From Patescibacteria group bacterium (GTDB lineage Bacteria; Patescibacteriota; Minisyncoccia; UBA6257; 02-FULL-45-10c), in the NCBI GenBank assembly GCA_018969615.1, contig JAGWYA010000006.1:1-55153 (forward strand): 55,153 bases of DNA. The letters run 5' to 3'. Made by a program: the position numbers and the translations under genes. The notes beneath the pieces were generated by a model. It did no database searches. It saw nothing but the letters and a program-made list of their open reading frames with translations, and had not been told where the DNA came from. This document shows, piece by piece, positions 14,370 to 55,153 of the stretch (position 1 is its first letter; each line of letters starts with the position of its first letter).

Positions 14370-14936
14370 TCAGTTTCCTCCTCTCAGCTCGCGTAGGTGA
14401 AACGCGATCCGAAGCTTCTCTCGTGCTCGGGATACCCGCGAGCGGATAGTCCCGGTCGGTACGCCGAGTCGTCGCGCGGCATCGCCATAGTGCAGCCCGG
14501 CGATGTCGCAGAGCGCGATGACCTTGCGGTGCGGCGGGTTCAGCGTCAGGTACGCCTCGCGGGCGAGCCCCAGCATTTCCTCGTGGACGAGCGTCTCGAG
14601 GATCGGCTTGTCGGTGCCGGCGAGCAGTCCCAGGTACGGCGTGCTGCCTTCCTCGGTTTCGACGTTCCCATCGAGCGAGCGATTGTGGCGCTCGGGCCCT
14701 CTGCGGCGGTCGATGAACTCATGTTTGAGGATGGCGAGGAACCACGACTTGAAGCTTCGCGCGGGATCGTACTGATCCCAGTGTTGGAGGGCCTGGTAGC
14801 AGGCTTCCTGCACGAGCTCGCGGGCTTCGTCCCGGTTATGGCACAGCTGGAACGCTACACAGTACGCGCGCTGTCCGGACTCCTTGAGGAACTTTGCCAG
14901 GCATTGCGCGGGGGTCTCTCCATTCGCGTTTCTCAT
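14370..14936 (-). CDS. ECF-type sigma-70 family RNA polymerase sigma factor
   Basis: Region 2 (ARELVQEACYQALQHWDQYDP...FKSWFLAILKHEFIDRRR) and region 4 HTH (IALCDIAGLHYGDAARRLGVPTGTIRSRVSRAREKL). Confidence 0.85.
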   Translation of the reverse strand: MRNANGETPAQCLAKFLKESGQRAYCVAFQLCHNRDEARELVQEACYQALQHWDQYDPARSFKSWFLAILKHEFIDRRRGPERHNRSLDGNVETEEGSTPYLGLLAGTDKPILETLVHEEMLGLAREAYLTLNPPHRKVIALCDIAGLHYGDAARRLGVPTGTIRSRVSRAREKLRIAFHLRELRGGN

Positions 14937-14990
14937 GTACGGCCTCCCTTCGGTTGGATGTCCCCGAAGTCCCGTTGTCTACCCGCCCGT

Positions 14991-16451
14991 TCAAATAGGC
15001 GGGAGACTTTGCGGGGACTTGGGGACATGGGGAGGACCGGTGGACGTTCCGGTGGATATTGAGGCATCAGGCGTTTGTTCGGAAAATAAGGGCGCCGGGG
15101 GGACTTCAGGACTTTGTTCAGGGGATGCCGGCGGGGGGACGTCGTAGCGGAGGGAGAGGCGGTCGAGCTTGGCGTATTCCGATTGGGGGAGGACGAAGAT
15201 GCCGTGCCGCTTCATAGGGACCAGGTGGAGTTTCGTTCGGAGGAGGTAGCCGACCCATTTGGGGGTGATCTTGCGGTCGTACTCTTCGCCGAACTTGGCA
15301 GCGAAGGTGTCCGTGATGTCCTTGAGGGCGACGGAAGATGATGCATCGGTCCAGAGTTCTCGGACGACTTCGAGAATCTGCGCTTCGGCTTCGAGGCCCC
15401 GTGCCCCTACCATCAGATCGTGATATTCACGGGCCAGGCCCTGAAGCTCTTGCCGGATTGCCGGGTCGTCTACGGTGCTGAGGAGCGGAACGAAGATTTG
15501 GCTGAGCCGTGGCTCGATGGCCCGGTCTACGAGAGACGGATCAACGGTGCAATGGGCAAGATTGCGGAACCGGAAGAGCAGGAGCTTGTTGCGGAGGCTC
15601 AGAGCTTCGCGTTGCTGTGCCTGCGGGAGGTTGATCGGGATGTCCCGGCGCAGTTCCCGCTCGCCCATCGGTTCGGTGAGGAAGCGGCTTTCGAGCGCCC
15701 GGTCTTCGAAGAGGCCGCGCGTAGCGACGATCTTGGGGCCGAAGACGGCGTATGCTCGGGGGTTGAACTCCTTGGTCTGCGGGGAGGCCTCGCTCCGGAG
15801 GACCGGGAAGCCCCGGACGTTCCCGTTGTTGAGGATTTTCACCATCTCGGAGCGTTCGTCGCTTTGGCGGAAGTCGGACTCGTCGATAATGAGAGTGCCA
15901 CGGAAGGCGTCGAGGATGCGGAACAGCGGGGAGATCGTCGAGGCTCCGGAGGCGAAGATGGGTTTGTAGCAGAGGGAGCCGACGGTCAGGAGGAAGCGCG
16001 TCTTGCCGCTGCCCGGCTCGCCTTGAATGCGGAGATATGGGAGTTCGTTGAAGGCGTCGTAGACCCAGGAGAACAAGACATACGAACTGGCGATGCGTTC
16101 ATAGAGCGGGCTTACATCGACGTAGCGGTGAATGAAGGACCGGATTTCGTCGAGAAGCTGGGTTGTGCTGCCGTATTCCTCGGGCATGGAGGGTAGGAGG
16201 ACGACGTTGTTGATGAGGAGGTTATTGCGCGGCGAGTACGGGACCAGGCGCTCGGCCGAGGAGAGCAGGATGTCGCTCGCGAGCGTCCAGGTGGCCCCGT
16301 CGTATACGGCGAAGCGGGTCCGGACGAGCTCCGGGTCATACACCAGCTCCACAATGCGGCCATCGGGAAGATGAGCGGAGCCGGCGGGGATGCGGCGGAC
16401 CGACTGTTCTTGGGGCGCGGCGTGCGCGTGCGGGGTATCCATGCGCCCCAC
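14991..16451 (-). CDS. P-loop NTPase, possibly a replication or mobilisation helicase-like protein of the element
   Basis: Walker A GEPGSGKT and Walker B LIIDESD. The overall layout resembles phage or plasmid primase-helicase C-terminal ATPases. The functional assignment is only an inference. Confidence 0.5.
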   Translation of the reverse strand: MGRMDTPHAHAAPQEQSVRRIPAGSAHLPDGRIVELVYDPELVRTRFAVYDGATWTLASDILLSSAERLVPYSPRNNLLINNVVLLPSMPEEYGSTTQLLDEIRSFIHRYVDVSPLYERIASSYVLFSWVYDAFNELPYLRIQGEPGSGKTRFLLTVGSLCYKPIFASGASTISPLFRILDAFRGTLIIDESDFRQSDERSEMVKILNNGNVRGFPVLRSEASPQTKEFNPRAYAVFGPKIVATRGLFEDRALESRFLTEPMGERELRRDIPINLPQAQQREALSLRNKLLLFRFRNLAHCTVDPSLVDRAIEPRLSQIFVPLLSTVDDPAIRQELQGLAREYHDLMVGARGLEAEAQILEVVRELWTDASSSVALKDITDTFAAKFGEEYDRKITPKWVGYLLRTKLHLVPMKRHGIFVLPQSEYAKLDRLSLRYDVPPPASPEQSPEVPPAPLFSEQTPDASISTGTSTGPPHVPKSPQSLPPI

Positions 16452-16567
16452 GGTACGCCGATCTTATTCTCTTTCCTAGACAGAGAATCCTGCCAAGATC
16501 GAATGATTCCTCTTCGGCAAAATTCTGGACCTTTGCGGGATGCTCGGGGGGTGTATCGTCTTTGAGT

Positions 16568-16816
16568 ATGAAAAAAGAACATCAAGAGGCGCTACGGCGC
16601 CTCTACCCCCAGCTCCCGCCTGAGCAGATCGTGGCACTCGACACGTTGCTTGATCGCTATGCGGCCTTCCTGTGGCAGATGCATGCCCGGGTAACGGCGA
16701 GCGATGAGGCGTGGAACGAGTTCCTGGCTTTGACAGAAGGTGCGGCGCGCTCTATCGTGGAGGAAGAACCTTCACACCAAAGGTCGAAAATTTATCGTCG
16801 AGATCAAAATGTATGA
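16568..16816 (+). CDS. Small hypothetical protein coupled to the recombinase
   Basis: Its stop overlaps the recombinase ATG (ATGA at 16813-16816). It could be an accessory or directionality factor, but no motif was recognised. Confidence 0.35.
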   Translation: MKKEHQEALRRLYPQLPPEQIVALDTLLDRYAAFLWQMHARVTASDEAWNEFLALTEGAARSIVEEEPSHQRSKIYRRDQNV

Positions 16817-18315
16817 ACGGAACAGAGTTCTACGCATACATCCGTGTCTCGACGGCTAAACAAGGCGAAAAGGGCGTTTCACTCATCGAGCAAAAAGCTG
16901 CGATCGAGCGGTACGCGGAACGCAATAACTACACGATCGTCGAGTGGTTCGAAGAACGCGAGACGGCCGCATCACGCGGTCGCCCCGTCTTCAATCGAAT
17001 GCTCCAGCTCCTCCGGAAACGGAAGGTGCGGGGTGTTCTCATTCACAAGATCGACCGGAGTGCGCGCAATCTCAAAGACTGGGCAGATCTCGGAGAACTG
17101 ATTGACCAGGGCATCGAGGTTCACTTCGCAAACGAAGGGCTCGATCTTCACTCCCGGGGCGGGCGGCTCTCAGCTGACATCCAGGCGGTGGTCGCCGCAG
17201 ATTTCATTCGAAACCTCCAAGAAGAGACCCGTAAGGGCATGTGGGGGCGGTTCAAGCAGGGCCTCTATCCGTTGCGTGCACCATTGGGCTATCGCGATTG
17301 TGGACCAGGGAAGCCAAAAGAAATCGACCCCGCAAAGGGGCCGCTCGTTCGGCGGGCATTCGAGCTGTATGCCACTGGTAAATACTCACTGATTCGCTTG
17401 CGCGCGGAGATGGCGCGTCGTGGGTTAACGAACCTTGCCGAAAGGAACCTGAGCATAAACAGCCTTGCCGCTGTGCTGCACAACCCGTTCTATGCGGGAC
17501 TCATCGCAATTAAAAAAAGTGGTGAAACCTTCCAAGGTGTTCATGAAGCTCTCATCCCTATGCATCTCTACAAGGAGGTGCAGAACGTTCTCAGAGGTAA
17601 GGTGCCGGTTCGCCAAGTGAAACATGATTTCTTGTTCCGGAAGAGCATCCGATGCGGAGAATGTGGACGCGCGTTGATTGGCGAACGAGTGAAGGGCCGG
17701 GTGTACTACCGTTGCCATCTGTCGGTATGTTCAACAAAAACGATCCGAGAGGATCGGGCGCTCGCAGAGGTCATCAGAGAGCTTCACAAACTTGAGTTTC
17801 CTGCTGGGGTTCAAGACATCCTCATCAAGGAGCTTGAAGAGATGCGGAAGAATGAATCGCGTAACCGACTTGAAGACAGGCAGTCGCGATCATTGCGTCT
17901 CGATCAGATGCGCGAACGCCTAAACCGGCTGACCGATGCCTATCTTGATCGCTTACTGGAAAAGGACGCCTACGAGGATCGACGCCGGCTTATTCTTATC
18001 GAAATCCGTGAGCTTGAGGAATTGGCAAAGAAGGAGCCGATGGGAGCCGAAAGAATGCCTGATCGGATCGTGGATCTCGTGATGCGCGCTCAAAATGCCG
18101 GTTCGACGTTCATCGCGGCAAAGGGTAACGAACAAAAAGTGCTGTTGCGAATTTTTACCTCGAACTTGAAGCTCAATTTCCGGAAGCTAGACGTAGAGCT
18201 GGCTCAGCCGTTTTTTGCAATTGAAAGTTTTAATACATCTCTGAAAGGGGTGCCTAATGGGAATCGAACCCATGCTATCGCTGCCACAGAGCGAAGTTCT
18301 ACCATTAAACTATAG
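16813..18315 (+). CDS. Large serine recombinase (integrase)
   Basis: FYAYIRVSTAKQGEKGVSLIEQ...VLIHKIDRSARN resolvase domain, followed by a recombinase domain, zinc ribbon CGECGRAL...YYRCHLSVC and a coiled coil. The internal ATG at 16813 is preferred over the track start at 16711. The last roughly 22 codons are antisense to tRNA-His. Confidence 0.85.
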   Translation: MNGTEFYAYIRVSTAKQGEKGVSLIEQKAAIERYAERNNYTIVEWFEERETAASRGRPVFNRMLQLLRKRKVRGVLIHKIDRSARNLKDWADLGELIDQGIEVHFANEGLDLHSRGGRLSADIQAVVAADFIRNLQEETRKGMWGRFKQGLYPLRAPLGYRDCGPGKPKEIDPAKGPLVRRAFELYATGKYSLIRLRAEMARRGLTNLAERNLSINSLAAVLHNPFYAGLIAIKKSGETFQGVHEALIPMHLYKEVQNVLRGKVPVRQVKHDFLFRKSIRCGECGRALIGERVKGRVYYRCHLSVCSTKTIREDRALAEVIRELHKLEFPAGVQDILIKELEEMRKNESRNRLEDRQSRSLRLDQMRERLNRLTDAYLDRLLEKDAYEDRRRLILIEIRELEELAKKEPMGAERMPDRIVDLVMRAQNAGSTFIAAKGNEQKVLLRIFTSNLKLNFRKLDVELAQPFFAIESFNTSLKGVPNGNRTHAIAATERSSTIKL

Positions 18316-18320
18316 GCACC
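18248..18320 (-). tRNA. tRNA-His (anticodon GTG)
   Basis: The reverse complement folds as a cloverleaf. It has an extra 5' G typical of tRNA-His, anticodon arm TCGCT-CTGTGGC-AGCGA, T arm ATGGG-TTCGATT-CCCAT and acceptor GTGCCTA/TAGGCAC. CCA is not encoded. Confidence 0.85.
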
Positions 18321-31051: not shown

Positions 31052-34000
31052 CTAATTGCTCGGGACATTCAACCCTGAAATATCAATGAGCGTTCCGACG
31101 GCTAATTCATGATCGGCCGTATTCCCCGCGATCCCCCATTCCGGAACGCCGATGCCGTTATTCTGAGCCACAACCTTGCACGCGCTCTTTACTTGATCCA
31201 CGTTGGCAGTAGCGCCGAGGACATCAAGCGCGAGAGCCCAGAGCGTCTGTCCTTGCGAAAGCGCCTGATACTTAAAAGCTCCTGTTTTGGTGATCGTCTC
31301 ATTGAACTGCATCCGCTTGGTCACCACGGTTCCTGCGGACGGAACAGCATTATCAGCATCACTGTCATCATTGGCCTGCTTGTCGGCAGTCATACTTGCG
31401 CTGTTCTTGAAATTGATGATCTTACCGTCATAGGTTTTCGTGCCATCGGTACCGGTCATCTGAGCGACAACCAGAAGATGACCCGGCTGAGTCTCTCCGA
31501 CCGCACACGAGCCGGTCACATCGGTCGCACACGAGCCGATCAACCCAGTCGTAGCCCCAAAGATAGATGCAAATTTATCCTTGGACGGTCCCTTGCCGAA
31601 CTGCTTCACAAAATCCGCATTCTCACGATCAAACACTTTGACCTGCGCACTCGGCAGCGGCTGGGTGCACTCAGGAGCTGGCTTGCCATTGGAAAGGGTT
31701 CCGCAAACACCTGACTTCGCCTGGTCAACAATATGAATGGTCGTGACCGTATCGTTCGCGAACGGGCAGCCGGTATCGCCGGCATTTCCTGCAACTGACG
31801 GGCACTGATCGGTCATGACCTGGTTCGGAGCGATCGTCACCGGGGTTCCATCCATGATCAACGTCACCGGTTCCGCGCTGAGGTTCTCAATCAAGATCCC
31901 GTTCGTTGCATTCGGATCAATATTCACTTCCTGACCCGGAAGCAGCGATCCGGTATCAAGCACGACATCATTTTCATCAACGACTTCGATCGAAAGCGGC
32001 TGCGCGTTCGATGCTGCCGGCAAGATAAAACTTCCCAGGGTTACGGTTTGTCCCGTGGACAAATTTACTTTCACCGCCTTCCCTTTGCCGGTCTGCGGCT
32101 CACGCAGCGAAATACTCGTTGCAGCTTTCACCGCCGTCGCGGTCGTGGTTAAAAGTCCGGTCGCCGGATCGGTCCCGCAAGTGATATCAACCGTATCTCC
32201 CGCTTTTTGCATTGAGACCTGCACCTTGTTTCCGCAGACCACCATCGAGGTATTGCTTCCGGATCCGCTAAGGCTCGCTTCGATCGTCCCTGCGGCCGCG
32301 GTCGGGATCACCGAGTAATTCCACCCGCCGCGACTCGTGATCGAGCCGAAGGTCGTACCGTCATTGAAATCGCTGGAATAGATCAGGCTTTCATCGGCGT
32401 TCGTCGATGCGTTGTGATCAATCGCTGTAACAATGCCGTCGTCATCAACCGTGATCATCGGACTCGAAGCAGTATTCCCTGCAAGGTCAGTTGCCGAAGT
32501 GGTAAAGGTCAGCGCGCTGCCTGCCGCCGGCGGAACCGTTACCGGCACCGAAGCGGTCCACACACCCGATTGCGCCGTTCCCGACGTCAGCGTTGCCGCA
32601 ACGCCATTCACTGTTACCGAAGCCGTACCGCTCGTCGCGTCGGAAACTGAAACCGTGACCGTTGCCGGTGAAGCCGTGATCGTATCATCTTTGACCGGGC
32701 TCGTGATCGAAGAGGCTGGCGGCATGGTATCCACCTGAACTTGCGTAGAATGGAGCGCCTCCACATTTCCCGCATTATCCACCGCCTGATAGCGGACATA
32801 GTTCATACCTTCGGTCGAAACCGATGCGGATGCGGCGATCGCGGTCGGAACACAGGTATTATTCTGGTCCACACATACTTCAACGCCGTTCACACCCGAT
32901 CCTCCCGCAGCATCCGTTGCGCTCAAGGCAACCGTTACCGCAGAGGTATACCAGTTATTCTGTCCCAGCGTCCCTGAGAGGGCCGCAGTCGAAACCGGCG
33001 CGGTCATATCGATCTTTACCGGATCGGAATGAAGCGCCTCCACGTTCCCGGCATTATCCACGGCCTGGTAGCGGACATAGTTCGTTCCTTGGGTCGAGAT
33101 CGTTGCGGTCGTGCCGGCCGTCGGCGTGCACGTATTCGTCTGGTCAACGCACAAGCTGACCGATTTCACGCCGGAACCTCCTGTGTTATCCGTCGCCGCA
33201 ACTGTAACCGTCACATTCGAGGTATACCAGTTATTCTGGCCGGCAGTACCCGCATAGGTTGCCGTAGAGATCGGCGCGGTCGTGTCCGGAGGAGTGCCGA
33301 AAACGGCATCATACTGTCCGCCGGCGAAGTCGCCGAATGCCTGCATGCCATAAAATGCAGAATTTACCAATGAATTGATAAGCTTATTGGTTGTTTTATC
33401 AAACTGGAAGATCTCACCGTTCGAATCATCAATGACCCATACATACGTATCGTCGAATGCAACGCCTGTCATATTAACGCCTCGATACGATGGCCATGTT
33501 GCAACGCCCGTAACCGCATCAGTAGTTTCATCGATCTTATAGAATTGCGGATCGGTCTGATCGACAACCCATACTGAGGTATTATCGGCTGCGATCGCCC
33601 CCAAATGGCCCCAGGAATAACGGCCGACCGGGATCGTTGCAACGACCGCGTCCGTTGTCCGGTCGATCTTCGTGACCGCATGTGTCCAGAAATCAGCGAC
33701 CCATACATAATTGCCGCCAAGAGCGACGCCAGTTGCCATACTGCCCGTCGGGATCGTTGCAACGACCGCTCCGGTATTTTTATCGATCTTCTGAACACTG
33801 CCACCGGTCGCAGCCCATACATAGTTCTGATCCACGGCGATACCCTGGTCATAACTTCCGCTTCCGGCTCCTGAGATGGTCTTGTCTATAGCAAGCGTCG
33901 CCTTGTTAATGGCGAGGATCGTAGGCGGGTGGTTAGTCGCAGAATAGGAGACCCATGCATCGGTAGAATCCAATGCAATAGCGCCGGCATTGTGCTGATA

Positions 34001-34360
34001 CGTACCAAAGATCTGGGTGAGCACTTCATTCGGAACTACTCCAAGGACCTGGCCGGTCGCTTTGCTCAGTTTTACAATTGGCCCCTGCCCGGCAAGAAAA
34101 ATAGCATTATCATCTACCGCAACATTCGGCGTGTCAGAACCAGCCGTATTATTCACCATGGCAATGGTCGTTGACGCCTTATTGAACTGGTACAGCCAGC
34201 TGAATCCATTGGGATTTCCCGACCTCGGCAACCAGAGAGAGCCGTCGACTGCCGGCACAAAGGTCGTTTGCGCATGCGCCGCACCAGGCAACGTCAATCC
34301 TCCGGGAAGGACGACCATTGCCGCAATTAATGATAAAACGATGATTTTTTTATTCATCAT
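31052..34360 (-). CDS. Large secreted surface protein: N-terminal beta-propeller-type repeats, tandem Ig-like domains, C-terminal LysM-like segment
   Basis: Signal peptide MMNKKIIVLSLIAAMVVLPGG. Repeated motifs of the form VW(V/A)A...V.KID..T.AVVATIP.G are YVTN/NHL-like. There are two near-identical 93-aa domains. The C-terminal GQTLWALALDV...VGTLIDISGL is LysM-like. Confidence 0.7.
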   Translation of the reverse strand: MMNKKIIVLSLIAAMVVLPGGLTLPGAAHAQTTFVPAVDGSLWLPRSGNPNGFSWLYQFNKASTTIAMVNNTAGSDTPNVAVDDNAIFLAGQGPIVKLSKATGQVLGVVPNEVLTQIFGTYQHNAGAIALDSTDAWVSYSATNHPPTILAINKATLAIDKTISGAGSGSYDQGIAVDQNYVWAATGGSVQKIDKNTGAVVATIPTGSMATGVALGGNYVWVADFWTHAVTKIDRTTDAVVATIPVGRYSWGHLGAIAADNTSVWVVDQTDPQFYKIDETTDAVTGVATWPSYRGVNMTGVAFDDTYVWVIDDSNGEIFQFDKTTNKLINSLVNSAFYGMQAFGDFAGGQYDAVFGTPPDTTAPISTATYAGTAGQNNWYTSNVTVTVAATDNTGGSGVKSVSLCVDQTNTCTPTAGTTATISTQGTNYVRYQAVDNAGNVEALHSDPVKIDMTAPVSTAALSGTLGQNNWYTSAVTVALSATDAAGGSGVNGVEVCVDQNNTCVPTAIAASASVSTEGMNYVRYQAVDNAGNVEALHSTQVQVDTMPPASSITSPVKDDTITASPATVTVSVSDATSGTASVTVNGVAATLTSGTAQSGVWTASVPVTVPPAAGSALTFTTSATDLAGNTASSPMITVDDDGIVTAIDHNASTNADESLIYSSDFNDGTTFGSITSRGGWNYSVIPTAAAGTIEASLSGSGSNTSMVVCGNKVQVSMQKAGDTVDITCGTDPATGLLTTTATAVKAATSISLREPQTGKGKAVKVNLSTGQTVTLGSFILPAASNAQPLSIEVVDENDVVLDTGSLLPGQEVNIDPNATNGILIENLSAEPVTLIMDGTPVTIAPNQVMTDQCPSVAGNAGDTGCPFANDTVTTIHIVDQAKSGVCGTLSNGKPAPECTQPLPSAQVKVFDRENADFVKQFGKGPSKDKFASIFGATTGLIGSCATDVTGSCAVGETQPGHLLVVAQMTGTDGTKTYDGKIINFKNSASMTADKQANDDSDADNAVPSAGTVVTKRMQFNETITKTGAFKYQALSQGQTLWALALDVLGATANVDQVKSACKVVAQNNGIGVPEWGIAGNTADHELAVGTLIDISGLNVPSN
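32717..33283 (-). repeat. Tandem duplication of a roughly 93-aa (about 280-nt) domain inside the surface protein
   Basis: TAP(I/V)STA...GQNNWYTS.VTV...ATD..GGSGV..V..CVDQ.NTC.PTA...NYVRYQAVDNAGNVEALHS occurs twice in tandem, with long identical nucleotide stretches. Confidence 0.75.
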
Positions 34361-35897: not shown

Positions 35898-37208
35898 CTA
35901 TGCGTTATTTTTTTTAAGGATCACGGCGCGGAGCGCGGCAAGGTCGTTCGGGAGCGGTATGGCATGCGGACGTTTTCGTGCAAGCGCACGGAGGCGGGAA
36001 GGCAACGGAACCCGTTTCTTGATGACCGGCTCAACGACCTCGCGGAACTTCGCCGGATGCGCGGTTCCTGCTACGATCACTTTGGTTCCCTTCTTTGCCA
36101 GGCAGGCAGCGGTAATGCCGACCGCCGTATGCGGATCGATGATATATCCCATTTCACGATAGGTCCTCGCGATCGTGCTCCGCGTATCTGCATCGCTCAC
36201 GCGCATACCGGCGATCGTCCGCGCCATTACAGAGCGTTTCCCGTGAAACAATTCCAATAAGCGCGCAAAATTACTGGGATTCCCCACGTCCATCGCATTG
36301 GAAATTGTTTTACGCGAAACACGTGAAACAAACGGCGCTCCGTGAAGAAAACGGGGGACGACGTCATTTATGTTCGTCGCGGCGATAAATTGTTTCACGG
36401 GCATCCCCATCCGCTGCGCAAGGATCCCGGCGGTCAGATTTCCGAAATTTCCGCTGGGAACACAAAAAGCCATATCCACCGCCTGTTCTGTTCCGTATCG
36501 CTTTGCGAATTGGGCATAGGCGTAGAGATAATAGAACGATTGCGGCAGCAGCCGGCCGAAATTGATCGAGTTCGCCGAGGACATCAGCACTTTTTTCCGC
36601 AGTGCCGGGTCGGCAAGCGCTGCTTTAGCGAGCTTTTGGCAATCATCGAAGCTTCCTTGGACCGCGATCGCGGTGATATTGCCGCCAAGCGTCGCCATCT
36701 GCCGTTCCTGGATCGGCGTTACCCGGCCGCGCGGATAGAGCACGAACACCTTGATATGAGGCACGCCGTAAAAACCCCGTGCGACCGCACTGCCGGTGTC
36801 TCCCGAGGTCGCCACGATAATGTTCAGCGTCTCTTTCTGTTTACCAAGATAATATCCCATCAGCCGCGCCATGAACCGCGCGCCGAAATCTTTGAACGCA
36901 AACGTCGGTCCGTGAAAAAGCTCAAGGACCGAGATCGAATCATCGATCCGATGAAGCGGCACCGGAAAATTGAACGCATCCCGGATGATCATTTTTAATT
37001 TTGCCTGCGGGATGTCAGTGATATACAGCCGGGAAACCTCATAGGCGATCTGCTGGAATGTTTTCCGGTGAAGATCACGCAAAAACTTCCGAGACAGATG
37101 CGGGATCCGGTCGGGCATGAACAATCCGCCGTCTGACGCAAGTCCTTGAAGAAGAACATCAGAGAACGGTACATTCTCTGTCCGATGGTTAGTGCTGTGA
37201 AATTTCAT
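35898..37208 (-). CDS. thrC: Threonine synthase
   Basis: FHGPTFAFKDFGARF (PLP lysine motif), ATSGDTGSA and SANSINFGRL. ATG at 37208 is preferred (MKFHSTN...). It overlaps the upstream kinase gene by 20 nt. Confidence 0.85.
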   Translation of the reverse strand: MKFHSTNHRTENVPFSDVLLQGLASDGGLFMPDRIPHLSRKFLRDLHRKTFQQIAYEVSRLYITDIPQAKLKMIIRDAFNFPVPLHRIDDSISVLELFHGPTFAFKDFGARFMARLMGYYLGKQKETLNIIVATSGDTGSAVARGFYGVPHIKVFVLYPRGRVTPIQERQMATLGGNITAIAVQGSFDDCQKLAKAALADPALRKKVLMSSANSINFGRLLPQSFYYLYAYAQFAKRYGTEQAVDMAFCVPSGNFGNLTAGILAQRMGMPVKQFIAATNINDVVPRFLHGAPFVSRVSRKTISNAMDVGNPSNFARLLELFHGKRSVMARTIAGMRVSDADTRSTIARTYREMGYIIDPHTAVGITAACLAKKGTKVIVAGTAHPAKFREVVEPVIKKRVPLPSRLRALARKRPHAIPLPNDLAALRAVILKKNNA

Positions 37209-37707
37209 AGATCTTTTCAACGATAGCATGCTCATCTGACCCCGTACAAATGATCGTGTGATCCGCATACCGGCGGTAGAGAATATCACGCTCAGCATGA
37301 AGCGCTTCCAATCCTTTTTCACGAAGTCCGACAATGCCGCGACTCTCCAATCCGCCGCCTAAGCGCCGGCGAAGCTCATCGGTATCAACCTCAAGATAAA
37401 TAACGATCGTATCGTCAGCGATCTTGCGCATTGCTCGTTCCGAATAAATAATGCTCCCGCCCGGGGCGAACACTGTTTCGCTGAGATCAAGCGTCAGAGT
37501 ATACGCCTCTTCCTGAGAGATCAACGCGGCGTTACCGTCGGCAGCCAGAATATCGGCATGACCCCTCTGGGTATGATCGCGAATATAAACATCCAGATCG
37601 ATAAACCGGGATCCAATACGGGAAGCGAATTTCTTCCCGATCGTCGACTTTCCCGCCCCGGGCATTCCGATAAGTGTTATTCCTTTTCGTTTCTTGAACA
37701 TATCCAA
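37189..37707 (-). CDS. Shikimate-kinase-family (AroK-like) P-loop kinase embedded in the thr operon
   Basis: LIGMPGAGKSTIG Walker A, DLD, PGGS and an AroK-like length of 172 aa. In a by-eye alignment, the Arg of the AroK F-R-x-x-E-E shikimate-binding motif is replaced (LISQEE). Confidence 0.65.
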   Translation of the reverse strand: MDMFKKRKGITLIGMPGAGKSTIGKKFASRIGSRFIDLDVYIRDHTQRGHADILAADGNAALISQEEAYTLTLDLSETVFAPGGSIIYSERAMRKIADDTIVIYLEVDTDELRRRLGGGLESRGIVGLREKGLEALHAERDILYRRYADHTIICTGSDEHAIVEKIYEISQH

Positions 37708-37714
37708 CTTTTAT

Positions 37715-38818
37715 CTACTTTCGATGCTGAATATATCCTTTCTTATAGAGCAATTCGGCGCCCAAGATCGCTCCGCCGGCCGCGCCGCGGATCGTATTAT
37801 GCGAAAGCGCAACGAACTTCCATCCTGACGGACCGTCCTCGCGGAACCGGCCGCAGGTGATCCCCATGCCGCGTTCATAGTCACGATCCAGTTTTGTCTG
37901 CGGCCGATCAGGTTCCGAAAAATAGGTAATGAACTGTTTAGGCGCCGACGGCAGATCTAGACCGGCAAGCGGATTCGGAAATCGCTCAACGGCCTTGATG
38001 ATCTGTTCCAGCGAAGGCTTCTTCTCAAAAACGACCGATGCGCTCGCCATATGTCCGTCTGCGACCGCGACCCGGATGCATGTCGCTGAGATCGCCGGAA
38101 CGGATGCGTTCACGATGTGGTCGCCCTCAACCGAGCCCAAGATCTTCATCGGCTCTTTCTCGCTCTTCTCTTCTTCGCCGCTGATGAACGGAATGCAGTT
38201 ATCAACCATTTCAGGCCAGGTCGCGAATGTCTTTCCCGCTCCTGAGATCGCCTGCAAGGTCGTGACCGAAACCGTCTTCGGCTTGAACTCGCTGAGCGCC
38301 GCAAGGATCGGCACATACGACTGCAGAGAGCAGTTCGGCTTCACCGCCAAAAGCCCCGTCGTCCATCCGCGCTTAGCACGCTGCGCATCGATGAGCGCAA
38401 TATGATCCGCATTCACTTCCGGCATCAGCATCGGCACATCATCCGTCCAGCGATGCGCGGAATTATTCGATACCACCGCAACGCCCGCAGCGGCATAGCG
38501 CTCCTCCAGCTCTTTGATCTTCGCCTTATCGGCATCGATCGCCGAAAAGACCAGGTCAACGTTCTGTGCGATCACGTCCAAATCCTCTTCCACTGCTTTC
38601 AACTTCATCCCCTTCACGGCCAAAGGAATGGGACTTTCAAGCAACCACCGCCCCATAACCGCTTCCTCATAGGCTTTCCCCGCCGATCGAGGCGATGCCG
38701 CGATCTCAACCACCTCAAACCATGGATGACCATCCAGTAGCGAAAGAAAGCGCTGCCCGACCATACCGGTCGCACCCAGAACACCCACTCTCACCTTTTG
38801 ATCTTTGATCTGTGACAT
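37715..38818 (-). CDS. asd: Aspartate-semialdehyde dehydrogenase
   Basis: VGVLGATGMVGQRF NAD(P) motif, active-site region KPNCSLQ, and conserved C-terminal LSHNTIRGAAGGAIL. Confidence 0.9.
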   Translation of the reverse strand: MSQIKDQKVRVGVLGATGMVGQRFLSLLDGHPWFEVVEIAASPRSAGKAYEEAVMGRWLLESPIPLAVKGMKLKAVEEDLDVIAQNVDLVFSAIDADKAKIKELEERYAAAGVAVVSNNSAHRWTDDVPMLMPEVNADHIALIDAQRAKRGWTTGLLAVKPNCSLQSYVPILAALSEFKPKTVSVTTLQAISGAGKTFATWPEMVDNCIPFISGEEEKSEKEPMKILGSVEGDHIVNASVPAISATCIRVAVADGHMASASVVFEKKPSLEQIIKAVERFPNPLAGLDLPSAPKQFITYFSEPDRPQTKLDRDYERGMGITCGRFREDGPSGWKFVALSHNTIRGAAGGAILGAELLYKKGYIQHRK

Positions 38819-38822
38819 ATGA

Positions 38823-41234
38823 CTAAATTTTTAATATATCCGCCACCACTCCCGCTGCAGTAACCTCCGCGCCGGCGCCAGGACCCTGAACGACCAATGG
38901 TCGCTTCGCATACCGCCGGGTCGTGATCGCAAAGATATTATCCGCTCCGCGCGTTCCGGCAAGCGGACTTTCCACCGAGACCGCCTGAAGCGAAGCGCTC
39001 GCTTTCCCATATTCGATCCGCGCGACATAGCGCAATACTTTTTTCTGCGCATACGCCTGAGCGGCCATCTTTTCAAATGCCTTATCAGAGGCGCGCAATC
39101 CTTTCAAAAACGCATCGGCGTTCTTTGCGTTCCGCAATGCCGTAGGGACCAAATTCTCGATCCGTATGTCCTTAAACTCCATCGCGAGACCGATCTCACG
39201 CGCAAGCACCAGCAGCTTCCGGCCGACATCATTTCCATTCAGATCTTCCCGCGGATCCGGTTCGGTGTATCCCAGTTTTTTCGCTTCCGCGACCACTTCG
39301 CTGAATCCCCGTGTTCCGTCAAAGGTATTGAAAATAAAGCTCAGCGTACCGGAAAAGATCCCTTCGATCTTTACGATCCGGTCCCCGCCGACAAGAAGAT
39401 CGCGCAGCGTGCCGATCACCGGCAAGGCCGCACCGACGTTCGTCTCATAGCGGAACTGCTTACGGTTCTTCGCCATGATCTCGCGGATCCGGCGATACTC
39501 GCGCATGCCCAGCACGTTGAACTTCTTGTTCGGCGTTACGATATGGAATCCCGCCTCCGCAACCGCCTGGTATTTTTTCACCACCGCATCGCTTGCCGTG
39601 CAATCCACGAACACGCTGTTCGGCAATACAAGCGCCTGTGCATCGGCGATCCATTGATCGATATCGGCTTCCTTGCCGCGGCTCAATGCCTGTTTCCATC
39701 CGTGAGCATCAATACCTTGCGGGTCCAAAAGCATTTTCGTCGTCGTGGCGATCCCGCAGACGCGAAGCGCCGCTCCCTGCTTCTGAAGCTCGGCGATCTG
39801 ATGTAAAAATTCAGCACCGATCGTTCCCGTTCCCACGAGGAAGATATTCTTTGCGCTTTTTTCAAAAAAAACATTATGCGCTGCGTTCATTGCGCGCACC
39901 TTGTCGTCCGCGCGGACCGCGAACGAAATGTTCCGCTCCGAACCGCCTTGGGCGATCGCCGAAACGCTCACGTCGTTCTCACCGAGCGCGCGAAACAGGG
40001 TACCCGCAATACCCGGTACGCCCCGCATGCCGTCACCGACAAGCGCAAGGATCGCCTGACCGGATGTCGCCGTGATATGCACCAGGCCGTTCCGTACTTC
40101 TCTTATGAATTCCTGCTGCAGTTTCTCAAGCGCCGCCGGTAATTCGGATGATTTGATCGCGATGCAGATCGTATGCTCGGATGACGCCTGAGAGATCAGG
40201 ATCACGTTCGCTTTTGCGCGCTCGGTCGCCCGGAACACCCGTGCGGCACTCCCCGGAATGCCGGCCAAGCTCACACCCGCGATGTTCACCAGCGCGACAT
40301 CATCGATGCCGGTGAGGCATTTGACCCGCATCCCTTCCTCATTCCCGCCGGCGCGGATCCATGTCCCCTCCGCCTGCGGATGGAACGTATTCTTGATCAC
40401 CACCGGAATGTTCTTTCTGACCGCCGGAAGCATCGTCGCCGGATGGATCACTTTCGCACCGAAATACGCCATCTCAATGGCTTCTTCATAACTTACTTCG
40501 GGAAGCACGACCGCGTTCTTCACGATCCGCGGATCGGCGCTGAGGATCCCGTCAACATCGGTCCAGATCTCGATCACTTTTACGTTCAATGCCGCGCCGA
40601 AGATCGCCGCTGAATAATCAGAGCCGCCGCGGCCCAGCGTCGTGGTCGTGCCCCGATCCGTCGAACCGAGGAATCCCGTGATCACCGGAATGCCCTTTTT
40701 CCCTTTAAAAAAAGCGCTGATGTTCCGGTCGGTCTTTGAAAAATCAACGGCGGCATGCACGAACGAGCCGTCGGTCTTTACCAATTCGCGCGCGTCAACG
40801 AAATATCCTCCTTTCAGCGATGCCGCAACGATGTATGCACACAACCGTTCACCGAAGCTCGCTACATGGTCCAGGTTCCGGTCGGAAACCTTTTCCTCTA
40901 CCTTAATACGGTCAAGAACTGAGCGGAGCTCATTCAAAAGTTCGGCGACATACGCCTCGCTTTCTTGTTTTGCTTTTTTACCTTTCACTAACTGCCGGAT
41001 CGCCTGAAGGTGGCGCTTCCGTAATTCTTCCAACTCCTCATCAAGCTTCGGCGAACGAGCTGCGCCCAGCTGCGCACAGCGCAGCAATTGATCGGTCACG
41101 CCCTGGAATGCCGAGACGACGATCGCCGTACCTTCTTTCCGCGCCGATGCGCCGGCGATCGCGGCGACCTCCTTGATCATTTTGGGACTTCCGACCGAAG
41201 ACCCCCCGAACTTCATGACTTTTGTTATTTTCAT
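38823..41234 (-). CDS. thrA: Bifunctional aspartokinase/homoserine dehydrogenase
   Basis: N-terminal VMKFGGSSVGS aspartokinase motif, then ACT-like region, then C-terminal Rossmann FLVGTGTIGAEF and a homoserine dehydrogenase catalytic domain. 803 aa. Confidence 0.9.
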   Translation of the reverse strand: MKITKVMKFGGSSVGSPKMIKEVAAIAGASARKEGTAIVVSAFQGVTDQLLRCAQLGAARSPKLDEELEELRKRHLQAIRQLVKGKKAKQESEAYVAELLNELRSVLDRIKVEEKVSDRNLDHVASFGERLCAYIVAASLKGGYFVDARELVKTDGSFVHAAVDFSKTDRNISAFFKGKKGIPVITGFLGSTDRGTTTTLGRGGSDYSAAIFGAALNVKVIEIWTDVDGILSADPRIVKNAVVLPEVSYEEAIEMAYFGAKVIHPATMLPAVRKNIPVVIKNTFHPQAEGTWIRAGGNEEGMRVKCLTGIDDVALVNIAGVSLAGIPGSAARVFRATERAKANVILISQASSEHTICIAIKSSELPAALEKLQQEFIREVRNGLVHITATSGQAILALVGDGMRGVPGIAGTLFRALGENDVSVSAIAQGGSERNISFAVRADDKVRAMNAAHNVFFEKSAKNIFLVGTGTIGAEFLHQIAELQKQGAALRVCGIATTTKMLLDPQGIDAHGWKQALSRGKEADIDQWIADAQALVLPNSVFVDCTASDAVVKKYQAVAEAGFHIVTPNKKFNVLGMREYRRIREIMAKNRKQFRYETNVGAALPVIGTLRDLLVGGDRIVKIEGIFSGTLSFIFNTFDGTRGFSEVVAEAKKLGYTEPDPREDLNGNDVGRKLLVLAREIGLAMEFKDIRIENLVPTALRNAKNADAFLKGLRASDKAFEKMAAQAYAQKKVLRYVARIEYGKASASLQAVSVESPLAGTRGADNIFAITTRRYAKRPLVVQGPGAGAEVTAAGVVADILKI

Positions 41235-50641: not shown

Positions 50642-52798
50642 TTATTGCACCTGGATCGTCTGGTCGAAGCTACTGCTGCCGTCAAGATTCTGGCACGTCA
50701 GCGTATAGGTCGTCGTGGTAGTCGGAGAAACACGCGCCGTTCCGAATGTTCCCGCGCTCACCCCGATGCTCGGCGTGATCGCGCACGAATTCGCGAACTG
50801 ACAGCTCCAGGTCAGGACCGATTGCTGTCCGAAGACCGAAGCTTTGTTCAGCGTGGTCGGCATCGCGGAGAAATCGCAGGTCGGAAGATCGGCCACCGTC
50901 ACCAGCATGCTCTGTGTTGTCGTTCCCAGCTGGCCGACGCAGGTCAGCGTATAGGTCAGATCCTTCTTCGCTGAAGCGTAGAAATCCTGAGAGCCGGTCG
51001 GGAACTTGCTGCCGCTCCAATCGTCGCTTGCGGTGCATCCGGTCGCGTTCGTGGCTTTCCATTGCAACGTATAGGCCGCCGGCGCCGCAAGTGTCGCCTG
51101 GTTTTGCATACCGTTCACCGACATTGTGATCACCGGTGCGCTCGTCGGCGCCGGCGGCGCATCAACCGCAACGTTGATCGATGAAATATTGGAAACCTTG
51201 CCGTCACTCTGTACCAGTCGCAACACACCGTACGCGTAGACTCCCGGCTGATCGAAGAATGTCAGGGTTCCAAGATCAACCGTACAATCTTGGACGGCTA
51301 CCGGATTCGGTATCGCGACATCAAATGTAGGGGTTCCTTGATTGAGATCGTAGTTCCAATCGCAATGCCCGCCTGCGGACATCAGCCCCGTCCATCCGCC
51401 GGTCGCATCCTGTGAAACATGGCCGTCGCGATTCGCATCATAGGCTGCCGAGAGCCACACATGCGTCGGAACGCCGCGAGTAATATGAACGCTCCGGGTA
51501 AATGTCTTTCCATCAGTGCTGATCGTTGCCTCCGCGGTCGGCATTGGTACCGCCGCGCCTCCGCTGCCGGTCATAATGACCTTCACCGAATCAGAACCGA
51601 GGCCGGGGCAATACATATTATAGGTATAGGTTCCCGGACTGGTGAGCGTATGCTGTTCCTGTCCCGCATTCGTGCGAATACCCAGCCATGAACCGTAGAC
51701 CAGGCAATACTGGTTCGCCTGCCAGGCAAGCGTAACCGTTGCCGGTACTTGCATCGTCAGCGGTCCTTTTTGCCCGTTCACGGTCAAGCCGACCACGGGC
51801 TGTACCACCTGGGTTGTGGTCGCTACCGGCGTTGGAGGCGGAGCCTCAACCGGAGGCGGAGCGGTTGGTCCGGTCGGAGCCGCAACGACCTTCACGGTCG
51901 CGGAGTACTGCGCTAAACCAAGCTGACTAAATTCCCCCGCCGCCGTGATCGTATAGCGTGTCGTGAATTTCGGCGAGACTTTTGTCGATCCCTGCGCCGC
52001 CACAATGCCGATACCGTTATTAATGGAAACCGCGGTCGCGTTCGTCGAGGTCCAGGTCAGCGTTGCGGATTGTCCGTCCGTGATCGTATCCTTATCTACC
52101 GTCAACGTCACCGTCGGCGGCGGCGGAATGTTACCGACATAGATCGTAAGGCTTCGCGTGATCGTTCCTTGCGCGGTCGATTTTGAATTATCGACATATC
52201 CCTTACAAGCAAAATTAAAATCATACACGCCGCGCTTCACGTATGTATAGGTCTTACTTCCCCGAATGACACCGGTTGTTCCGTCAAAATTCTGAGAAAA
52301 ATTTCCTGTGTCGGGCTCATTCCCGGAGAGCATACACTGTGACGCCGTCGGTCCGCTCCAATTAATAGTGAATGCCCCGCCTTCCGGAACTTTATCTTCA
52401 GTGGCCGTAAGACTTACCATCGCATCAAGCGGCGGACAGATCGTATTGCCGCGCGCTCCTGGATCTACCGGATTGAGCGAGAGCCACGAAATGACACAAT
52501 ATTCAGGCCGATATCCGCCGGCGATCTGGCCGCCAAATCTATCATAGACATATCCGCCGACTGCACCCCTTGTAGTACCCATTAACTGCTCCGAGCATTG
52601 CCGTTGATTACCCTCAATACGCTGCTGACCATACTGATTCCAAACGCAGAGCGGCGGCTGCTGCGTCGATGCGCCGATCTGTAAATTTGGATCAGTGGCA
52701 GCGAAGGCGCCGATCGCTGAAACCGCAAGAAAAGCGATGATCGCTCCCCAGAGGATGAGAAGCTGCCTTTTTGAGAACGGAAGCAGATGTCTATGCAT
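50642..52798 (-). CDS. Secreted surface protein built of repeated Ig-like domains
   Basis: N-terminal signal or anchor LLILWGAIIAFLAVSAIGAFA. Repeated roughly 90-aa modules end in patterns such as T(T/R)YT(L/I)T(C/A) (TTTYTLTCQN, LTYTLTCVG, TRYTITAAG). Confidence 0.7.
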   Translation of the reverse strand: MHRHLLPFSKRQLLILWGAIIAFLAVSAIGAFAATDPNLQIGASTQQPPLCVWNQYGQQRIEGNQRQCSEQLMGTTRGAVGGYVYDRFGGQIAGGYRPEYCVISWLSLNPVDPGARGNTICPPLDAMVSLTATEDKVPEGGAFTINWSGPTASQCMLSGNEPDTGNFSQNFDGTTGVIRGSKTYTYVKRGVYDFNFACKGYVDNSKSTAQGTITRSLTIYVGNIPPPPTVTLTVDKDTITDGQSATLTWTSTNATAVSINNGIGIVAAQGSTKVSPKFTTRYTITAAGEFSQLGLAQYSATVKVVAAPTGPTAPPPVEAPPPTPVATTTQVVQPVVGLTVNGQKGPLTMQVPATVTLAWQANQYCLVYGSWLGIRTNAGQEQHTLTSPGTYTYNMYCPGLGSDSVKVIMTGSGGAAVPMPTAEATISTDGKTFTRSVHITRGVPTHVWLSAAYDANRDGHVSQDATGGWTGLMSAGGHCDWNYDLNQGTPTFDVAIPNPVAVQDCTVDLGTLTFFDQPGVYAYGVLRLVQSDGKVSNISSINVAVDAPPAPTSAPVITMSVNGMQNQATLAAPAAYTLQWKATNATGCTASDDWSGSKFPTGSQDFYASAKKDLTYTLTCVGQLGTTTQSMLVTVADLPTCDFSAMPTTLNKASVFGQQSVLTWSCQFANSCAITPSIGVSAGTFGTARVSPTTTTTYTLTCQNLDGSSSFDQTIQVQ

Positions 52799-52856: not shown

Positions 52857-53282
52857 TTAGTCCACATTTTCAAAATACGATATTTCACAATAATTTATTA
52901 ACTTTGTCAATTCACGCTTAGAGAGCTTTCCTTGCGGGATCATGTCGTCCGGAACCGCGATCGCAACCGCATCGATGCGCCACGACCCCCTCTTTTCCCA
53001 CAGGTCAAGATGGGTGTTCGCGTAAAATTCAGCGATCCGTTTCATTTTTTGAATTTTTTGGCGCGTAAGGTTGTCTTCCGGCAAAAGCACCGCATCACCG
53101 CCGTGTCGCACGATCGTTTTGACCTCGACAAAAACCAAAATCCCCTTCGGATCGGTCGCAACAATGTCGATCTCGCCCCATGGACGCCGGAAATTCTTTT
53201 CCCGGATGCGAAAACCTCGCGCGCTAAGGTATTCGCATGCCATCTCCTCCCCAACCCTCCCGATAGAAGTAGTGTTTTTCAT
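52857..53282 (-). CDS. yraN: YraN-family (UPF0102) endonuclease-like protein
   Basis: IGRVGEEMACEYLSARGFRIREKNFRRPWGEIDIVA...LVFVEVKT is the YraN pattern. The start could be at 53282, 53291 or 53309. Confidence 0.75.
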   Translation of the reverse strand: MKNTTSIGRVGEEMACEYLSARGFRIREKNFRRPWGEIDIVATDPKGILVFVEVKTIVRHGGDAVLLPEDNLTRQKIQKMKRIAEFYANTHLDLWEKRGSWRIDAVAIAVPDDMIPQGKLSKRELTKLINYCEISYFENVD

Positions 53283-53411
53283 AAAAAACATCTTCTGTAC
53301 CGGCCGCATTGTGGTGTGCCGGTATCTGCCCTCTGAGTATACCCCACTCTGTCCAAGTCTGTAATGGGATCTTCCGCTTTATTTATTGCGATCCTGGCCG
53401 AGTACGCTATT

Positions 53412-54393
53412 TGTTTCACGATAAACAAATAACAAGGGCTCATGGATCAGTTCTGATCCTGTTTGGTATATCGGATCTGTTTCACGGCAAACATTTTTGC
53501 CGCCGATTGATCCTTTTAAGATGTTTGTCGTGAAACAAACACCCTGAAGTATCCCGTCTCGTGCTGCACCTTATAAAAAACGAGGCCCCCCCCTTCTTCA
53601 TATCTTTTTCGTCTATCCGGAGCCGCGAGAGTAAGCTGCGCTGATGCGGTGATCAAATAAAAAACGATCTTACGAAAAAATAAGATACGGATGTGTGTCC
53701 ATCACGCCCAAGAACAGCGGTGCGATCTTATTTAAGAACGATCGGTGAAGAAAAAGGATCCGGGCACAACTAGTATTCAAGCTGGGCCGATTAAACTAAA
53801 ATACTTTTCCAATAAAGATATGACTACTCCCCGCAAAAGCTACGACTGTTTCACGCGAAACACTGAATTCCGTATTTACTCAAAAACGGCCAAAAACTAA
53901 AAAGTGGATAACTTAAAAACCTAAAAAACTATCAAAGAAACAACTAATGCCTGGTTTGATCTATGAGACATATATGTTTCACGAGAAACATTAAAGGCTA
54001 TCTTTTGCTTGTTTAGTTTCACGTGAAACATATCCAGAGGGATTATTATGGCACTAAAACTTTGTTTCACATGAAACATTATTATAGATCAAATCATAAG
54101 TACACATAATAGTTTCACGTGAAACACAATCTAACAATTTAATATATTAAAACATGAGCTTCGATATCACATTTTGTTTCATGTGAAACATATTTATATC
54201 TATAAAATATATAAATTTATTAACTTTATTTAAAATGTTTCACAAAATAGGCGTGAAACATATATAAATATCGGCAATAACATGGCAAACTAATATATTG
54301 CCGAATTATAAGATAATTTATGTGAAACATATGATGTTAAATAAAAATAGCGCCCTTTGGACGCTATATAAATGTTTCACACCTATGTTTCAC
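53412..54393. repeat. parS: Dense array of parS-like 16-bp palindromes (ParB-binding centromere-type sites) in an AT-rich intergenic region
   Basis: Nine sites match the consensus TGTTTCACGTGAAACA. Three match at 14 of 16 positions: 53412-53427, 53478-53493 and 53522-53537. Six match at 15 of 16: 53847-53862, 53975-53990, 54015-54030, 54063-54078, 54111-54126 and 54175-54190. There is a split site (54236-54243 with 54253-54260) and half-sites at 54322-54329, 54373-54380 and 54386-54393. Confidence 0.7.
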
Positions 54394-54395
54394 GA

Positions 54396-55153
54396 TTATA
54401 ATTTATCGTAATTCTCGACTATTTCTATCAGATTACTATATCTCTTTGACATTCTCTTGCTCCGGCGGCGGTTGATCTGCTTTACCTTTCCTATCTCCTT
54501 CCAGTTGAACTCATAAGGGATCCAGATGCCTCGGTACCCCGCCTTAATGGCTGGGATGATGTCATCGGCATAAGTATCGCCGATGCTGTAATAGGAAGAC
54601 CCCTTATAGCGGCTCTTCACAAGCTTAAAGTCGCTATATTTGCTATCAATCGGGATAAAAACGGCATCGAAGTACTTCAGGAGACCCGCCTTTTTAAGGG
54701 CCTTGATCTTATCTCCCTGGATCTTTTTATCACCTTTAGTGATGATCACCAGAGTATCCCCCTTTTCCTTTAAGAACTTGAGGACATGGGCCACTTCCGG
54801 CTTGATCTTACGGACATAGCGGTCCTGACGGAACGCCTGGAGCCCGATGCTGTAGAGCCGGCGGATGACCTGAACGTTCAGATCAATCCCGGCTTCCTTG
54901 CACAGGATCTCATAGATCTTACACAAAGAAGTAGGGAAACGCGGCTTGGTGTAGTAGTACAACCGGCCGGTATCCGGGTTCTTCATATAGATCATCTGTT
55001 TATCCAGCTCAGCATGCCGGCGTTTGATCTCAGCCAACGTAGGGGAGTGGTCACTCAACGCACGCTTGATCTCCACGCACGCCTCTTCAGTAGGCTTTAC
55101 GTAAAAATCCGTCTTCATCATCGTCCCATCAAGATCAAAGACCAGGACCTTCT
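54396..55153 (-). CDS. HAD-superfamily hydrolase (5' end runs off the window)
   Basis: The frame stays open to the window edge. The last in-window codons read KVLVFDLDGTMMKT (HAD motif I DLDGT). The later ITKGDKK and GDTYADDI fit HAD motifs II to IV. Confidence 0.65.
   Translation of the reverse strand, partial: KVLVFDLDGTMMKTDFYVKPTEEACVEIKRALSDHSPTLAEIKRRHAELDKQMIYMKNPDTGRLYYYTKPRFPTSLCKIYEILCKEAGIDLNVQVIRRLYSIGLQAFRQDRYVRKIKPEVAHVLKFLKEKGDTLVIITKGDKKIQGDKIKALKKAGLLKYFDAVFIPIDSKYSDFKLVKSRYKGSSYYSIGDTYADDIIPAIKAGYRGIWIPYEFNWKEIGKVKQINRRRSKRMSKRYSNLIEIVENYDKL

Follow-up and report, generated by a model that had tools for sequence, protein, structure and literature searches.

A cluster of parS-like sites 5' of yraN as a probable chromosomal centromere of a Paceibacteria-type Patescibacteria bacterium

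What is the role of a dense cluster of parS-like palindromes that occupies positions 53412-54393 of a 55,153-bp stretch of Patescibacteria DNA (the whole of which is called the window here), in the AT-rich gap between the open reading frames (ORFs) of yraN and of a weakly assigned HAD-type hydrolase? The original prediction, made from the letters of the window alone, had placed the cluster between these two ORFs, as was found here, and had taken it for a compact centromere at which the partition protein ParB is loaded. The follow-up supports this view, by the canonical motif, by a conserved cluster at the same position in relatives and by the occurrence of ParA and ParB in the phylum. The region 53412-54393 is thus most probably a ParB-loaded chromosomal centromere (parS array) of a Paceibacteria-type Patescibacteria bacterium.

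Sites were called parS-like when a 16-mer matched TGTTTCACGTGAAACA with at most two mismatches, and 100 dinucleotide-preserving shuffles of the window served as the null. Eleven such matches were present in the window, nine of them at 53412-54190, while the shuffled sequences gave none (mean 0, maximum 0). Recounting the nine array 16-mers returned the numbers first reported, with six sites carrying one mismatch (15 of 16 positions) and three carrying two (14 of 16), and the one split site and three isolated half-sites were all recovered at 54236-54393. The motif is the canonical ParB binding site, as had been stated, and the array fits the 16-bp palindrome TGTTNCACGTGAAACA. The further statement that no copy is perfect is correct for complete 16-mers but not for the 14-bp core, which is perfect in the two AGTTTCACGTGAAACA sites; the outer base that is mismatched in both is a weakly conserved position. 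Exact 8-mer half-sites (TGTTTCAC or GTGAAACA) were confined to few places within the available sequence, 14 of the 19 in the window falling inside the 1 kb of 53412-54393. The individual features of the array are as follows.

53412..53427: parS-like site TGTTTCACGATAAACA, 2 mismatches, a canonical half with an 'ATC' variant half; the site nearest to yraN
53478..53493: parS-like site TGTTTCACGGCAAACA, 2 mismatches, a canonical half with a 'GCC' variant half
53522..53537: parS-like site TGTTTGTCGTGAAACA, 2 mismatches, a hybrid with a 'GTC' variant half
53541..53846: site-free stretch of 306 bp, GC 0.45, with the three yraN-proximal sites on one side and six better sites on the other
53847..53862: parS site TGTTTCACGCGAAACA, 1 mismatch, at position 10
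53975..53990: parS site TGTTTCACGAGAAACA, 1 mismatch, at position 10
54015..54030: parS site AGTTTCACGTGAAACA, perfect 14-bp core, the outer base alone deviating
54063..54078: parS site TGTTTCACATGAAACA, 1 mismatch, central CG changed to CA
54111..54126: parS site AGTTTCACGTGAAACA, 1 mismatch (outer base), perfect 14-bp core
54175..54190: parS site TGTTTCATGTGAAACA, 1 mismatch, central CG changed to TG
54236..54260: split site, TGTTTCAC at 54236-54243 and GTGAAACA at 54253-54260, separated by a 9-bp gap
54322..54329: lone half-site GTGAAACA
54373-54380 and 54386-54393: two lone half-sites TGTTTCAC, with the stop codon of the HAD-type gene on one side and the terminator-like hairpin of that gene on the other

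The comparison across related genomes, which had been proposed as a check, revealed an equivalent array at the same position, 5' of yraN, in more than 10 Paceibacteria-type genomes. In 80 nusA-anchored loci from relatives (1.18 Mb in total), 22 parS-like sites were found, 21 of which were located just 5' of yraN, in zones that make up 2.1% of the 1.18 Mb (binomial P ~1e-34). Within the 20-kb loci of the relatives, all or nearly all half-sites of each locus fell in one stretch 5' of yraN. The recurrence of the same array at the same place indicates a real, conserved element. The arrays in relatives, most of them from metagenome-assembled genomes (MAGs), are listed here with the locus handles used below.

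L005, MAG contig CAYMXN010000002.1: nine sites 5' of yraN, five of them perfect
L004, MAG contig CAYICF010000001.1: five sites 5' of yraN
L187, OZ241963.1, a complete 661,662-bp Paceibacterota chromosome obtained from an independent pattern scan: eight sites 5' of yraN, seven of them perfect
L202, MAG contig JAUYHP010000031.1: seven canonical sites plus variants 5' of yraN
L207, MAG contig JAUYMR010000020.1: six sites 5' of yraN
L217, Liptonbacteria MAG: eight sites 5' of yraN, seven of them perfect
L215, Colwellbacteria MAG: five sites 5' of yraN
L213, L206, L223 and L247, further Patescibacteria MAGs: smaller or mixed arrays 5' of yraN

Only yraN has a conserved linkage to the array, and both outer flanks vary. 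The neighbour on the far side is of HAD type in the window, TrpR-like in L005 and MGMT-like in L187, and the gene after yraN encodes a 718-residue protein in the window but is nusA in L005 and relA in L247. In L202, L207, L005 and L004 one site is positioned 23-25 bp ahead of the yraN start codon, whereas about 130 bp separate the nearest site from the likely start in the window. No parS sites were present at yraN loci from phyla other than Patescibacteria. A metagenome scan for parS followed by ATGAAAAA, an unspecific pattern, listed 120 matches, 4 of which were yraN loci.

Predicted ParA and ParB of the canonical type exist in the phylum. In the Yanofskybacteria locus L247, yraN is preceded by three parS sites and a parB-parA pair is found 3 kb away, its ParB containing ParB_N and HTH_ParB domains and a GERRWKA box. 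Searching with this ParB gave thousands of homologues, and the 120 closest included proteins assigned by NCBI to Paceibacterota, Portnoybacteria, Sungbacteria and Azambacteria; in a genome scan with the same query, the matches were mostly from other phyla and none came from the array-bearing MAGs. Four Patescibacteria parAB loci had a common parA-parB/relA-topA-dprA neighbourhood, with no parS and no half-site within 10 kb; the loci L399-L404, which have this neighbourhood in common, and the parAB locus L252 had neither within 10 kb of parB. In most bacteria a parS is found within parB or close to it; in other phyla, close parS pairs usually adjoin parB, and among 120 listed metagenome matches with parS before an ATG, ParB was encoded nearby in 65. 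Patescibacteria parAB loci devoid of parS fit a centromere that is placed elsewhere.

By analogy with established ParABS biology, ParB dimers would recognise each palindrome, bind cytidine triphosphate (CTP) and close into sliding clamps, which would then escape onto the flanking DNA. Many adjacent loading sites should give a high loading rate and thereby one dense ParB complex, to be segregated by ParA and probably also to recruit or load SMC. Since the relatives keep a site beside the start of yraN (often 24 bp upstream), the ParB complex probably extends over the yraN promoter or leader; more speculatively, it may in this way modulate yraN, or YraN may act together with the partition complex.

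Centre-to-centre distances in the array are 66, 44, 325 (across the site-free stretch), 128, 40, 48, 48 and 64 bp. The core spacing of 40 to 66 bp given in the original prediction is therefore roughly right, except that the 306-bp site-free stretch cuts the array in two. This stretch had no Rfam match, its predicted RNA fold was no better than those of shuffles (z = +1.2), and it showed neither a blastn match in relatives nor an excess of GATC. Across arrays the commonest inter-site distance was 48-51 bp (18 of 73 distances), and in L202 nine successive sites follow each other at intervals of 48-50 bp, separated by unrelated spacers. Neither in the window nor in L202 did Tandem Repeats Finder detect a repeat whose period matched that of the sites, and the spacers are unrelated, so that regular spacing, where present, appears to be kept without sequence homology. 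The L187 array (1473-1906; at ~417.5 kb of OZ241963.1) has site positions with a 175-bp period, three parS per unit, and a repeated spacing of 68/42/69/64, a pattern suggestive of array growth through local duplication. Across 53232-54367 and 53642-55007, the Logan contigs of four public runs, all of them mine-drainage or soil metagenomes, showed not a single substitution, and given these independent contigs the array is not an assembly artefact. The sole inter-sample difference across the array was a C-run at ~53579-53587 (at 53586), which was one base shorter in the contigs of two of the four runs.

The sites of the different arrays share TGTTT...CG...AAACA, with variation at positions 6-7 and 10-11. 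Palindromes in which both halves are variant were of four types: TGTTTGCCGGCAAACA, TGTTTAACGTTAAACA (in L004 and L203), TGTTTAGCGCTAAACA (in L012 and L212) and TGTTTGTCGACAAACA (in L016). Canonical parS sites were interleaved with the palindrome TGTTTGCCGGCAAACA and with hybrids in L202 (9589-9992), L207, L213, L206 and L209. The three two-mismatch sites of the window are each a hybrid of a canonical and a variant half that recurs in other genomes: the hybrid at 53412..53427 is present, as TGTTTATCGTGAAACA, twice in L005, that at 53478..53493 also in L202, L207, L213 and L215, and that at 53522..53537 twice in L020, the corresponding full variant palindrome being the one in L016. Among the six one-mismatch sites, two deviate in the outer base, two in the central CG (to TG or CA) and two at position 10, and the TG variant of 54175..54190 is also found in the L187 and L217 arrays. 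The variants suggest either that ParB specificity has drifted or relaxed at positions 6-7 or that a second reader exists; the simpler reading is that a redundant array has tolerated drift, which would account for the mismatches in the window along with a relaxation at positions 6-7 that is typical of the clade. The idea that systematic one-base deviations tune ParB loading found no support, because several relatives have mostly perfect sites (seven of eight in L187 and in L217, five of nine in L005) and because two window sites have perfect 14-bp cores.

The window itself carries ordinary chromosomal genes, including nusA, infB, rbfA, tyrS, those of trigger factor and an H+-pyrophosphatase, a threonine pathway and five tRNA genes, and its NusA is 60-68% identical to NusA proteins of Patescibacteria MAGs labelled Harrisonbacteria, Liptonbacteria, Jorgensenbacteria and Paceibacterota. 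Next to the array are the following features.

52857..53309, minus strand: yraN (UPF0102, predicted PD-(D/E)XK-type nuclease; Pfam PF02021, E 2.5e-21)
53336..53365, minus strand: sigma-70-like promoter match (ATTACA, 18 bp, TATACT) between array and yraN, a candidate yraN promoter by consensus match only
54347..54367, minus strand: terminator-like hairpin with T-run that follows the HAD-type gene within the region of the array, from a consensus scan only
54396..55121, minus strand: weak HAD-type hydrolase ORF, both HAD matches being below the Pfam curated cut-offs

Alignment with relatives places the likely start of yraN at the ATG at 53282 (MKNTTSIG...). The number of sigma-70-like matches was not above that in shuffles, and no identical protein is on record for the HAD-type ORF. 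Scanned against Pfam, the large ORFs of the window included no parA, parB, dnaA or dnaN, as had been noted before. A secondary mini-cluster of parS-like sequence is located 17 kb from the main array, at 36235..36398 inside a thrC-like ORF, and comprises CGTTTCCCGTGAAACA, TGTTTTACGCGAAACA overlapping CGAAACACGTGAAACA, and a lone TGTTTCAC. Two of its 16-mers have two mismatches (36235 and 36306), and it contains three exact half-sites in 160 bp, where the window in its entirety would be expected to hold ~1.7. The fetched relative loci contained no thrC homologue.

Could the array serve mainly as an operator, at which a ParB-family protein represses or times yraN while segregation is secondary or takes place elsewhere? 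We regard this as unlikely. It would account for yraN being the sole conserved neighbour between variable outer flanks and for the site 23-25 bp ahead of the start codon in L202, L207, L005 and L004, and there is precedent in that ParB is reported to affect parS-adjacent promoters in Pseudomonas aeruginosa and Streptococcus pneumoniae (PMC5521831, PMC4488948). Eight to ten sites over 0.5-1 kb, however, far exceed the needs of an operator, and the nearest site in the window is about 130 bp from the likely yraN start. The sites also have the universal centromere sequence, the parAB loci of the phylum have no parS of their own, and the roles of operator and centromere do not exclude each other. 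Distinctly unlikely, in our estimate, is a decaying or weak centromere with functional loading sites elsewhere in the genome. Zero perfect 16-mers here versus five to seven in relatives, the split and isolated half-sites, the 306-bp interruption and the second cluster at 36.2 kb would all be expected of such a remnant, but the array stands at a conserved position, is identical in sequence in several samples and has six one-mismatch sites, two with perfect 14-bp cores. Moreover, natural parS sites of Bacillus subtilis and Caulobacter with one or two mismatches are bound in vivo.

That the palindromes are read by another protein (a Noc-like ParB paralogue or an unrelated regulator), perhaps besides ParB, seems quite improbable. 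Such a reader would explain the TGTTTnnCGnnAAACA variants, and would fit both the TGTTTGCCGGCAAACA-type palindromes standing in a 48-49 bp register with canonical parS in L202, L207 and L213 and the hybrids that recur across genomes, three of them in the window; the variable positions include one that sets parS apart from the Noc site. Yet canonical parS makes up the majority of the sites, none of the loci showed a second ParB-family gene, and a single ParB of relaxed specificity accounts for the data just as well. An even smaller likelihood attaches to the AT-rich region being oriC with its DNA-unwinding element and the palindromes being accessory. The distal half of the array has a GC content of 28%, genes diverge from the array in L005, and dnaA, confirmed by Pfam, is 7.6 kb from yraN in L217 and 4.9 kb in L223. 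The suggestion that the locus is probably origin-proximal is thus borne out in part, for these two relatives (dnaA 5-8 kb from the array); dnaA is absent from the window and from within 10 kb of the array in L005. There is no DnaA-box cluster at either array (one one-mismatch box in that of the window, zero in the tested region around that of L005), and in L223 the DnaA-box-like sites cluster beside dnaA, away from the array. Computing GC skew relative to the locus, another of the proposed checks, showed no sign switch at the array; the sign is also kept across the arrays of L005, L213 and L217. The lack of both a DnaA-box cluster and a skew switch thus argues that the array is not oriC. Skew in the window is uniformly negative from 18.3 kb to the end, where genes are mostly on the minus strand, and its sign suggests that the origin may lie beyond the right end of the window, on the side of the array. 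The sole switch, at 18 kb, was considered as a terminus 35 kb from the array and rejected; an integrated island next to tRNA-His, whose boundary it marks, explains the change of sign. Least credible of all is that the array belongs to an integrated plasmid or prophage as its centromere, or that it represents a dispersed repeat of a generic kind. Low GC around the array, closely spaced perfect parS pairs on 78 IMG/VR contigs and an integrated island elsewhere in the window (1-18.3 kb) could be cited in its favour. Against this, the array occupies the same chromosomal position beside yraN in more than 10 genomes, no mobile-element genes adjoin it, all or nearly all half-sites of each relative locus are gathered in one stretch, and none of the viral contigs with parS pairs carries yraN. 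The mobile-element centromere was rejected, and so, within the sequence available, was the dispersed repeat, 21 of 22 sites in relatives being 5' of yraN.

Several observations weigh against a chromosomal centromere at this locus. No parB, parA or smc is visible in the 55-kb window, the ParB of this genome being inferred from the phylum, and parAB and an array were seen on one contig only once (L247). The array has no perfect 16-mer and three sites with two mismatches, and a weak second parS-like cluster is present at 36.2 kb. The window also lacks dnaA, and the skew does not switch at the array; for this genome, proximity to the origin is no more than possible.

How does the array compare with known partition sites? 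It is not a new kind of element. Myxococcus xanthus has 22 parS in a ~3-kb chromosomal cluster that is preferentially bound by ParB (Iniesta 2014, PMC3899335), so that the rarity of tight chromosomal arrays implied by the original prediction is not supported. Both clusters are dense and of chromosomal type (~7 sites per kb there, ~9-11 here), include non-identical variants and are separate from the parAB genes. In M. xanthus, however, the cluster is 4 kb from parA and parS is near the origin (PMC3899335), whereas here no parAB is found within at least 36 kb, on one side. The M. xanthus site consensus is TGTTCCACGTGGAACG, its genome measures 9.1 Mb compared with probably <1 Mb here, and yraN is a conserved neighbour only in the present case. 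Close pairs of perfect parS were found at more than 120 genome loci across phyla and on the 78 viral contigs, most having 2-5 sites per kb. Arrays of the same palindrome with 7-8 sites per kb occur in Lachnospiraceae (L148), a Eubacteriales MAG (L167) and Muribaculaceae (L120), none of them linked to yraN, and on a viral contig (L384); with nine sites in 0.78 kb, the array of the window is at the top of the sampled density range. The Lachnospiraceae array (1014-1353 of the L148 locus, CAVBGA010000065.1) consists of eight parS at intervals of 46-47 bp, seven of them perfect, and precedes a parB gene by ~1 kb; it is thus a regular, tight array in a phylum unrelated to Patescibacteria.

With the dispersed chromosomal parS of B. 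subtilis, Caulobacter crescentus, P. aeruginosa and other bacteria the array shares the identical 16-bp palindrome, the expected reader (ParB/Spo0J with HTH_ParB and the CTP-binding GERRxRA box) and presumably CTP-gated clamp loading, ParA-driven segregation and SMC loading. It differs in that the sites crowd into a single intergenic kb and parS is missing from the parAB loci of the phylum, while those systems have a few sites scattered over distances from several kb to hundreds of kb, frequently within genes and frequently in or beside parB. The sopC centromere of the F plasmid, to which the array had been likened, is a tandem repeat of homologous 43-bp units beside sopAB on a plasmid, with a site sequence of its own. 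The likeness extends to the many ParB-family sites, their short and fairly regular spacing (48-49 bp commonest here, compared with the 43-bp sopC unit) and one large partition complex as the likely effect. It goes no further, as there is no tandem repeat of homologous units and no adjacent parAB on an extrachromosomal replicon; instead the spacers are unrelated, the site is the universal parS, and the array is vertically conserved in a chromosomal context, among housekeeping genes (nusA, tyrS, infB, H+-pyrophosphatase, tRNAs) of conserved synteny.

The kind of element is thus already known, while the tie to yraN, the separation from parAB, the common spacing of 48 bp and the recurring site variants were undescribed in the literature searched. 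That search returned no paper treating parS and ParB together with Patescibacteria and none linking UPF0102 YraN to parS; the one paper mentioning both carries a title on the B. subtilis LysR-type regulator YybE. A more specific proposal, which is possible but rather doubtful, is that the centromere of Paceibacteria-type members of the candidate phyla radiation would be an array, commonly with ~48 bp between sites and with unrelated spacers, in which canonical parS and TGTTTnnCGnnAAACA variants stand side by side, tied for good to the yraN start and without linkage to parAB. YraN might then be a partner or a regulated target of the ParB partition complex, or the ParB of the clade (or a second reader) might be relaxed or dual in its specificity at those positions by which parS is normally told apart from other sites.

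Other parts of the window gave some additional observations. Positions 1-18319 are probably an integrated genomic island adjoining tRNA-His (18247-18319), with two large serine recombinases (9322-11265, minus strand, and 16711-18315, plus strand), a LanC-like cyclase (3298-4623) and a LanB-type lantibiotic dehydratase (4627-7728), besides an HNH protein and an ECF sigma factor; within the island the GC skew is positive, and over the remaining window it is negative. Lanthipeptide genes in a Patescibacteria genome may merit attention. The threonine-pathway block (35898-41234) encodes an aspartokinase-homoserine dehydrogenase fusion, an aspartate-semialdehyde dehydrogenase, a shikimate-kinase-like protein and a threonine synthase, and is unexpected in a lineage generally described as devoid of amino-acid biosynthesis. 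The large ORF after yraN (50642-52798, 718 residues) has no Pfam match; by eye it is rich in Thr and Pro and hydrophobic over a stretch at the N-terminus, features suggestive of a secreted or surface protein. Another large ORF (31052-34360, 1102 residues) had only a faint Pfam match.

The known ParABS paradigm is left unchanged by these results. What the array provides is the probable location of a centromere in uncultured bacteria with tiny genomes and an almost unknown cell biology, together with a landmark in the sequence by which the chromosomes of MAGs from the clade could be oriented. The natural series of site numbers, spacings and variants found in this clade could be used to study how these properties set the size of the ParB complex, and the strict linkage to yraN offers a first clue, open to testing, to the unknown function of a widespread protein family.

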